DNA of 60,044 nucleotides, counting the filler, from an uncultured bacterium (GTDB lineage: Bacteria > DAOPZR01), in the NCBI GenBank assembly GCA_964637655.1. It is 4 parts of 4 records of this genome, joined end to end, with 100 filler letters (N's around TTAATTAATTAA, not from the genome) between each part and the next. Parts side by side here need not be neighbours in the genome. Positions count along the whole stretch, not along the records: positions 1 to 14,978 come from CAZWUZ010000060.1; 3 more parts are not named here. One strand, written 5' to 3'. The translations under genes were made by a program, and so were the position numbers. Position 1 is the first letter of the stretch; the number at the start of each line of letters is the position of its first letter. Positions 1,878 to 2,489 of this stretch are shown here, piece after piece. The notes under the pieces are model-generated. The model was not told the origin of the DNA. It did no database searches and saw only the letters and a program-made list of their open reading frames with translations.

Positions 1878-2489
1878 TTATTGATTTTCCTGTGCGGCTT
1901 CTTCCATTTTTTTGCGCAAACTGAGCGGGCGCATGTCGGTCCAGACCTCCTCGATGTACGCCAGGCACTCGTCTTTGGTTCCGTGCTTGCCGGTGTCCTG
2001 CCAGCCGAGGGGAAGTTCCCGGTCTGCCGGCCAGATCGAATACTGCTCTTCGTGATTGACCACCACCGCGTAGATTGTCAGATCTTCCCTCTCGCCGGCT
2101 GACGACCGGGTCGCGCCCGCCCGCGAGCGGTGTGGCACCGGGCTGTCAGCGGCAGGCGGCGGCGTAACCACCAGATCAATGCGCCGGCCGAGTTTCTTCG
2201 CCAGGCATTCGAGCACGGCGGCAATCGCGCCGGCGGCCTGCTGACTCAGGCCGGCCACTGCGGTGGTATCTGTCACGCGTGCGGCCAGCACCAGCGCGAT
2301 GACGCTGTCGGTTTCCGTCATGGCCACGGTGAACTGCCCGGGCGTATCGGCGATGCTCCCGACGATATGCTCGACCAGTTCCCTGACCATCGTTCCGCCC
2401 GGCGTTTCGGCGGCGCGAACCGGTCCGCCGGCAACCACAAGTGTACACAACGCCACTATCAGGCAACAGATGCTGCGCTTCATAGCCAT
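1878..2489 (-). CDS. Fusion protein: signal peptide + degenerate KhpA-like (KH) domain + C-terminal MbtH-like domain
   Basis: C-terminus [39 protein letters not shown] is the MbtH signature; N-terminus [24 protein letters not shown] is signal-like; middle resembles KhpA/UPF0109; GGGGAG RBS. Confidence 0.8.

Follow-up and report, generated by a model that had tools for sequence, protein, structure and literature searches.

A putative exported fusion of a KhpA-derived domain and an MbtH-like module in an uncultured bacterium

Gene structure and domain architecture

The window analysed here is the whole 60,044-nucleotide stretch of DNA from an uncultured bacterium (assembly GCA_964637655.1), and near its beginning an open frame of 203 codons on the minus strand (1878..2489) encodes an unusual fusion protein. 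In order, the protein comprises a Sec-type signal peptide of 24 residues (2412..2483), a middle domain of ~75 residues, a 23-residue linker rich in Pro, Ser, Arg and Ala (2094..2162) and a full MbtH module (1881..2093), all read from the minus strand. The initial annotation placed the gene at 1878–2489; that frame is present, and the likely start codon lies at 2483, which gives a 201-residue precursor (1878..2483, minus strand) with a TAA stop at 1878–1880. This start is preferred because direct reading of the sequence finds a Shine-Dalgarno-like GGGGAG (2491..2496, minus strand) that is better spaced for the ATG at 2483 (7 nt) than for the alternative ATG at 2489 (1 nt), which would add Met-Ala. 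The database copy of the protein, P0001, likewise has 201 residues and starts at 2483. The three-part architecture can be assigned with high confidence.

MbtH-like proteins (MLPs) are ~70-residue cytoplasmic partners of the adenylation domains of nonribosomal peptide synthetases (NRPSs), and occur free or fused to an NRPS. The MbtH module of the fusion protein matches Pfam PF03621 (E 8.9e-22; 76.7 bits against a cut-off of 27; residues 135–181 of the 203-residue frame) and ends in a Lys/Glu-rich tail. As initially described, it is intact, lies in frame behind the linker and has no start codon of its own. By eye, the module agrees at every position, except for an Ile in place of the Leu before WP, with the MLP motif VxxNxExQxSLWP-x5-PxGW-x12-L-x6-WTDxRPxSL. 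This motif was drawn from 133 MbtH-like proteins, and many of its residues are at the NRPS-binding interface, according to PMC7593251.

Several features show that the gene is real and suggest that it is expressed. GC content at third codon positions (GC3) is coding-type in every segment of the frame: 0.76 overall, and by segment 0.67 (signal peptide), 0.79 (middle domain), 0.84 (linker) and 0.71 (MbtH module). The window as a whole has 65.6% GC, and GC3 of its other genes is ~0.8–0.9. A sigma-70-like promoter site (TTGACG-17-TACACT, its -10 element preceded by TG; 2577..2605, minus strand) is found ~90 nt upstream of the start codon as a consensus match only, and two promoter-like sites occur within 1500–2900, compared with a mean of 0.2 in 50 shuffles. 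A terminator-like hairpin with a 12-bp stem, 9 G-C pairs and a weak T-tail (1714..1743, minus strand), also a consensus match only, lies between the fusion gene and a convergent SbnB-like gene. The upstream neighbour, a xylose-isomerase-like TIM-barrel gene by Pfam, is divergent. With a divergent gene upstream, and a convergent SbnB-family gene separated from it by the hairpin, the fusion gene therefore looks monocistronic. None of the five sequencing runs that contain the stretch is an RNA dataset. The convergent neighbour (647–1645, plus strand) belongs to the SbnB family (ornithine cyclodeaminase-like; TIGR03944, 197.9 bits against a cut-off of 326.9) and may be the remnant of a building-block cassette. 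A radical-SAM gene (1–270, minus strand) runs off the start of the window.

The KH-MbtH architecture appears to be very rare. Across 5.8 billion protein clusters, 2881 proteins of 111–356 residues matched at E <= 0.001, and among the best 120 of these the only full-length matches are P0001, the window's own protein, and P0002, a 206-residue protein that is 70% identical over 99% coverage, with the same architecture and an unbroken frame. When the search was scored on residues 25–110 alone, the same two proteins were the only ones recovered among 337 candidates. A contig scan of 185,579 species genomes found no relative of the middle domain, a profile search of PDB sequences with this domain returned only FabH at E 1.7, and no paper containing both 'MbtH-like' and 'KH domain' was found in the literature searched. 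These results agree with the initial annotation, which knew of no such architecture. Two further candidates were rejected. The sole phmmer match of the middle domain among 1.84 billion representatives (P0123) is spurious, a translated tandem repeat matched in seven stretches; this library did not return the query's own cluster and may have holes. The sole match among JGI metagenome contigs (L001) rests on a seed in a frame that is non-coding and lies opposite another open reading frame (ORF).

The domain join is not an assembly artefact. First, contigs assembled from single runs of one wastewater study cover 1945–2834, 1831–2178 and 2257–2622, bridging both domain boundaries with no differences, so that the misassembly that the initial annotation wished to exclude across the join is not seen. 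These runs may include the sample of origin, and the contigs rule out a co-assembly chimera rather than provide independent replication. Second, and as the stronger argument for a real join, P0002 has the same arrangement. Because the contigs bridge the joins and the 70%-identical P0002 keeps the whole frame, the fusion is neither a misassembly nor a one-off chimera. Identity between the two proteins varies by segment, with 9 of 24 residues in the signal peptide, 76% in the middle part, 12 of 23 residues in the linker and 57 of 71 (80%) in the MbtH module, an unevenness that fits what would be expected for a functional protein. It is thus very improbable that the gene is an evolutionary accident, whether a young, functionless chimera or an artefact of assembly. 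The small number of proteins with this architecture, the lack of other sequence relatives of the middle domain and an MbtH part that looks freshly derived from a canonical MLP would all suit such an origin, but the single-run contigs carry the joins unchanged, 30% protein divergence from P0002 has brought neither a frameshift nor a stop, and the folded parts are far better conserved than the signal peptide and linker. A repurposed MbtH fold or a recent chimera had been offered at the outset; the repurposed fold is the better of the two, without being proven, and the existence of an orthologue speaks against a one-off chimera.

Relatives of the source organism also appear in a second study. Contigs from a landfill metagenome (run X5) cover the flanks of the fusion gene, with nine differences in 199 bases at 1400–1598 and six in 242 bases at 2589–2830. 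Of the fusion gene itself, this run yielded no more than short pieces of the MbtH core, from which nothing is concluded. Because these contigs of the flanking genes differ at few bases, a close relative of the source organism appears to live in landfill.

Export signal and KhpA-derived middle domain

By inspection, the N-terminus has the features of a Sec (SPase I) signal peptide: a basic n-region that starts with MKR, an uncharged h-region of ~17–19 residues, a Gly-Gly-Pro break and a PVRA-A site with small residues at -3 and -1, which predicts cleavage after V-R-A. The best 11-residue Kyte-Doolittle mean, a crude measure of our own, is 3.15. Twin arginine and lipobox are both absent, the residue before each Cys being Leu or Val. 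P0002 has the same n/h/c layout and an A-H-A site despite its few identical residues in this segment. The signal-like peptide of the initial annotation is thereby sustained, as a call made by inspection. Because the window also encodes a TolC-like outer-membrane protein (41117–42946), the source organism is a diderm and has a periplasm, and a soluble protein exported by the Sec route would therefore be periplasmic or go beyond. Taken together, export of the fusion protein is probable.

Two alternatives concern the fate of this N-terminus. In the first, an uncleaved signal would anchor the protein in the inner membrane, with its domains at the outer face. The long uncharged stretch of ~19 residues, from SICCL to GGPV, would suit a membrane anchor, but in both orthologues a helix-breaking Gly/Pro precedes a small-x-small site (VRA/A and AHA/A), as it does in signal peptides that are cleaved, and inspection finds no lipobox; a tethered form is accordingly judged quite unlikely. 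In the second, translation would begin within the gene. The internal ATG at 2390 that the initial annotation had pointed out does exist (2388..2390, minus strand): it encodes Met32 of the 201-residue form, the first residue of the KH-like domain, is conserved in P0002 and coincides in the alignment with the start position of KhpA proteins. Its upstream sequence, GGGCGGAACG, is a poor Shine-Dalgarno match.

The middle domain (2163..2390, minus strand; ~76 residues) had been likened to KhpA by eye, and profile comparisons uphold the likeness. It aligns with positions 1–72 of the 73-position Pfam profile KH_KhpA-B (PF13083) at E 0.0095, with 16.3 bits against a cut-off of 32.1, and with NCBIfam KH models at E 0.0034 and 0.0035 (PRK00468, 17.7 bits against a cut-off of 106), so that the curated Pfam and NCBIfam KH cut-offs are not reached. 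As a reference, five KhpA genes that pass the Pfam cut-off were drawn from as many unrelated genomes, and their alignment was compared with a two-sequence profile of the middle domain. In this comparison hhalign gave 95% probability, E 3.7e-8 and a score of 43.3 over 73 ungapped columns, as against 10.3 +/- 2.1 (maximum 20.0; 0 of 200 above 20) for 200 column shuffles of the query and 15.7 for the reversed query. When one genomic KhpA was compared with the window by tblastn, the only notable match was at 2166–2381 (E 2.6e-9). Over the 73 gap-free columns, the domain and the KhpA consensus share 33% identity. A feature search of the ESM Atlas placed KhpA clusters first (0.79, 0.78 and 0.76), which serves as a lead only, and the same resource gave no usable match for the whole mature protein.

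Structure prediction is consistent with this assignment. AlphaFold2 (AF2), supplied with a 36-row alignment of 34 KhpA rows and the two orthologues, modelled the domain with a mean predicted local distance difference test (pLDDT) of 83.7 and a predicted template modelling score (pTM) of 0.75. The elements of the model (H4-20 E27-33 E37-44 H49-54 H57-74 E77-83) follow the type II KH order. Among 48,161 chains, the best structural match is KhpB/EloR (9lrg; Z 9.2, root-mean-square deviation 2.7 A over 74 residues), followed by the KH domains of ERAL1 and Era (Z 8.9 to 7.9). The middle domain is thus homologous to KhpA without being a member of the family by curated thresholds.

The RNA-binding loop of this domain has degenerated. 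Most of the 34 KhpA rows of the 36-row alignment read D-[LM]-G-K-V-I-G-K-x-G-R-T-A-x-A-x-R-T in this region, including the GKVIGKxG loop, where the fusion protein has TAVAGLSQ (2241..2264, minus strand). The replacement of the GxxG loop seen in the initial annotation is thus confirmed, VIGKxG of KhpA reading VAGLSQ. Only the Asp and the central Gly, one of three glycines, are kept; the other two glycines, the Ile and both lysines have changed, and the two arginines have become Gln and Ala. The loop of P0002, SAAVHGMN, is equally degenerate. In a 2026 preprint on KhpA and KhpB (PMC13015501), substitutions in GXXG or in the extended GXXIGXXG motif abolish RNA binding by KhpA, KH domains dimerise via two helices, and KhpA proteins form homodimers.

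The dimer face may have survived the loss of the motif. Complex prediction of a middle-domain homodimer gave a score of 0.74, compared with 0.00 for the best control, with 100% contact agreement between runs and a partner pLDDT of 85. Of 30 proteins solved as one-chain pairs, 20 reached the mark used for this homodimer score, as did one of 23 solved as single chains. The predicted interface is formed by helices 8–22 and 56–73 of the modelled sequence (P0121). Because KhpA dimers are already known, the prediction shows likeness rather than proof of binding by this copy. The middle domain can thus be described as a KH relic that has lost the RNA-binding motif, and that would keep the fold and the two-helix dimer face. 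That such a dimer makes the protein bivalent is a tentative proposal, which we place a little on the doubtful side of even.

Exported and cytoplasmic MbtH proteins

The fusion protein is accompanied in sequence databases by a second kind of MbtH protein with an apparent export signal. Most of the long MbtH matches listed are tandem MbtH-MbtH proteins of ~150–160 residues, with N-termini such as MKIILRYLLTMTLVLGLGFSTTVFAQG. Among the best 120 of the 2881 long matches, 112 have two MbtH cores, and 95 are signal-bearing by a crude rule of our own (an uncharged 10-residue window with mean hydropathy >= 1.6 whose start lies 14 or more residues ahead of the first MbtH core); the remaining 25 include cytoplasmic tandem forms and truncated sequences. 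Signal-bearing examples include P0011, P0013–P0018, P0020–P0025 and others, as well as the genomic loci L002:99-587(+) and L003 ~868-1338(+). In those inspected, both repeats keep the full MbtH motif, and no Met lies just before the first repeat (e.g., P0017). The source annotation of the tandem proteins is 'MbtH family NRPS accessory protein', from metagenome-assembled genomes (MAGs) of Saprospiraceae and Bacteroidota (e.g., MCH8962716.1). The cytoplasmic location that the initial annotation gave for MbtH proteins is therefore too narrow, signal-bearing tandem forms being common in metagenomes. No description of an exported MbtH protein was found in the literature searched.

In species-representative genomes the tandem form is scarce, occurring at two of the 80 loci listed, one in a Bacteroidia MAG (L002) and one in a Rhodothermales MAG (L003). 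Their neighbours are unrelated, a metallo-beta-lactamase-fold protein at the former and a peroxidase at the latter, and NRPS genes adjoin the tandem MbtH gene at neither locus. Among 401 genomes of one phylum, the tandem form is present only in the host genome G006; none was found among 251 genomes of the family of the Saprospiraceae MAG G008, and a scan of viral contigs for exported MbtH gave no match. G006, a MAG of 8.6 Mb, gave no condensation-domain match, nor did any amino-acid adenylation domain reach the cut-off; as it is a MAG, this does not show absence.

MbtH proteins in other settings were also noted. Cytoplasmic tandem MbtH-MbtH proteins, without a signal peptide, are represented by P0003–P0010, P0012, P0026 and P0028, and among the matches listed their C-terminal repeats include the closest relatives of the MbtH module of the fusion protein, at up to 89% identity over the core. 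G008 (locus L010) and an isolate, Taibaiella soli (G009, locus L021), carry canonical stand-alone MbtH genes and no condensation-domain match; in T. soli a different contig encodes one amino-acid adenylation domain above the cut-off. Genomes with MbtH but no classical NRPS may be commoner than assumed. A single-domain candidate for export, in Nostoc sp. PCC 9305 (L067:9989-10336(+)), joins a signal-like extension of 38 residues to a single MbtH. It was rejected because, of 151 genomes in the order, only one matched over the extension, so that the frame may have been called too long. Immediately upstream of it are HlyD-type and AcrB-type efflux genes, and the NRPS clusters of that genome lie elsewhere.

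The relationship of the fusion protein to these groups can be judged from its MbtH core, which is 82–89% identical to the nearest cytoplasmic MbtH proteins, some of them stand-alone genomic copies. Mean identity is 78% to 76 genomic copies, compared with 65% and 64% to the repeats of exported tandem proteins. Given this greater similarity of the core to cytoplasmic MbtH, the fusion protein probably gained its export signal independently of the tandem family. An ORF of at least 1000 codons lies within 10 kb in 39 of the 80 genomic MbtH loci listed. The 60-kb window has no ORF above 917 codons, and no NRPS family was found among the 29 window proteins scanned.

These comparisons bear on the possibility that the fusion protein is a cytoplasmic helper after all, made from the internal ATG at 2390 or retained through inefficient export, which would assist an adenylation enzyme encoded elsewhere while the KH relic dimerises. 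The full MLP motif and the closeness of the core to cytoplasmic MbtH would both fit such a role, as would the conservation of Met32 in P0002 at the ancestral KhpA start, the adjoining SbnB-family gene, and the existence of cytoplasmic tandem MbtH-MbtH proteins, by which bivalency is not tied to export. Against it, the upstream start has a good Shine-Dalgarno sequence and the internal ATG a poor one, the 31 upstream codons keep signal-peptide character in the 70%-identical P0002, and the promoter-like site precedes the start of the long form. Furthermore, the same MbtH motif is found in both repeats of the signal-bearing tandem proteins inspected, and no NRPS-size gene lies within 60 kb. A cytoplasmic helper is thus unlikely, though less so than a membrane-tethered form or an accident.

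Proposed role and comparison with known systems

Taken as a whole, the fusion protein is best explained as a periplasmic protein in which the KH relic serves as a dimerisation module for two MbtH heads, a reading that we consider evenly balanced between right and wrong. The precursor would be exported by Sec, and removal of the 24-residue signal would leave a mature protein of ~177 residues with two folded parts and a flexible linker. The KhpA-descended part would act only in dimerisation or docking, in a compartment without RNA, and the dimer would present two MbtH heads, the same valency as in the far commoner exported tandem MbtH-MbtH proteins. These heads would clamp an extracytoplasmic protein partner through their tryptophan-lined face; because the MbtH surface is retained, the partner would be gripped in the way that adenylation domains are. 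The gene with its three parts, the KH homology, the lost RNA motif, the retained MbtH motif, the rarity of the architecture and the intact join are established, and we infer the further steps of export, signal removal, dimer formation, bivalency and an extracytoplasmic partner. More broadly, the fusion protein suggests that exported MbtH proteins form a larger class, as yet undescribed. It is possible, with rather more doubt, that the MbtH fold has a second, extracytoplasmic life, several lineages exporting bivalent MbtH, usually as a tandem and here as a fusion with a KhpA relic, for use as a clamp independent of NRPSs.

Several observations weigh against a periplasmic clamp. First, the MbtH core keeps the adenylation-domain motif and resembles NRPS-associated cytoplasmic MbtH at 82–89% identity, an NRPS may be encoded elsewhere in the genome, beyond the 60-kb window, and a cytoplasmic isoform may arise from Met32, given its conservation in P0002 and its place at the KhpA start site. 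We know of no extracytoplasmic partner for the MbtH surface, and the Nostoc protein, the sole single-domain exported example, is doubtful. Second, the structural evidence has its own counterweights. The confident AF2 model depends on the KhpA rows, the two orthologues alone giving an unusable model with a pLDDT of 47.2. Foldseek found no match in the PDB at E <= 0.001, its weak top rows being the KH domains of NusA, uS3, Era and KhpB. Finally, PMC13015501 reports two-hybrid assays in which GXXG-type substitutions also made KhpA homodimers weaker, a point against a dimer here.

The consequences would reach beyond this gene. Members of the MbtH family are routinely annotated as 'NRPS accessory protein', and that role is at odds with a fully conserved MbtH module that follows an export signal. 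If export is true, the partner of the conserved surface must be something other than an adenylation domain. MbtH genes serve as beacons for natural-product gene clusters, and the genome-mining rules based on them would in that case need a caveat. The KH relic would likewise offer a clean natural case of an RNA-binding fold reused for protein-protein contact in an RNA-free compartment.

Elsewhere in the window, two sizeable ORFs lack a Pfam match at E <= 1e-5. One (5987–7102, plus strand) begins with a signal-peptide-like sequence, MKLTLLLVLAVLWTAPVCA, and the other (30627–32666, plus strand; 679 residues) has unusually high GC content, 0.87, at the first codon position. A protein with Schlafen/AlbA_2 and HATPase_c_4 domains (20285–22015, plus strand) and an HsdM type I restriction methylase with an N-terminal helix-turn-helix (HTH) domain (27788–29617, plus strand) flank the valyl-tRNA synthetase region, and these flanks may be a defence-related patch.

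Three known systems come closest to the fusion protein. Like the MLPs of PF03621, such as TxtH and FscK in PMC7593251, the protein has a full MbtH module with the motif in its C-terminal 71 residues. Unlike them, it carries this module behind a signal peptide and a KH-fold domain, in a 201-residue precursor from an apparently monocistronic gene with no NRPS-size gene within 60 kb. The middle domain agrees with KhpA (PF13083; UPF0109), the small RNA-binding partner of KhpB/EloR, in length and in the succession of its helices and strands, keeps the invariant Asp and central Gly, and is predicted to dimerise on the same two helices as those described in PMC13015501. However, unlike KhpA, it falls below the Pfam cut-off, has the TAVAGLSQ loop and has lost the arginines, and it is fused to MbtH behind an export signal. 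A third parallel is with the signal-bearing tandem MbtH-MbtH proteins, in which a Sec-type signal also precedes a full-signature MbtH and which, at two loci, also lie away from NRPS genes; these proteins have two MbtH repeats and no KH-like domain, whereas the fusion protein has a single MbtH repeat. Judged by these features, the fusion protein is standard in neither parent family, as one defining feature fails in each.

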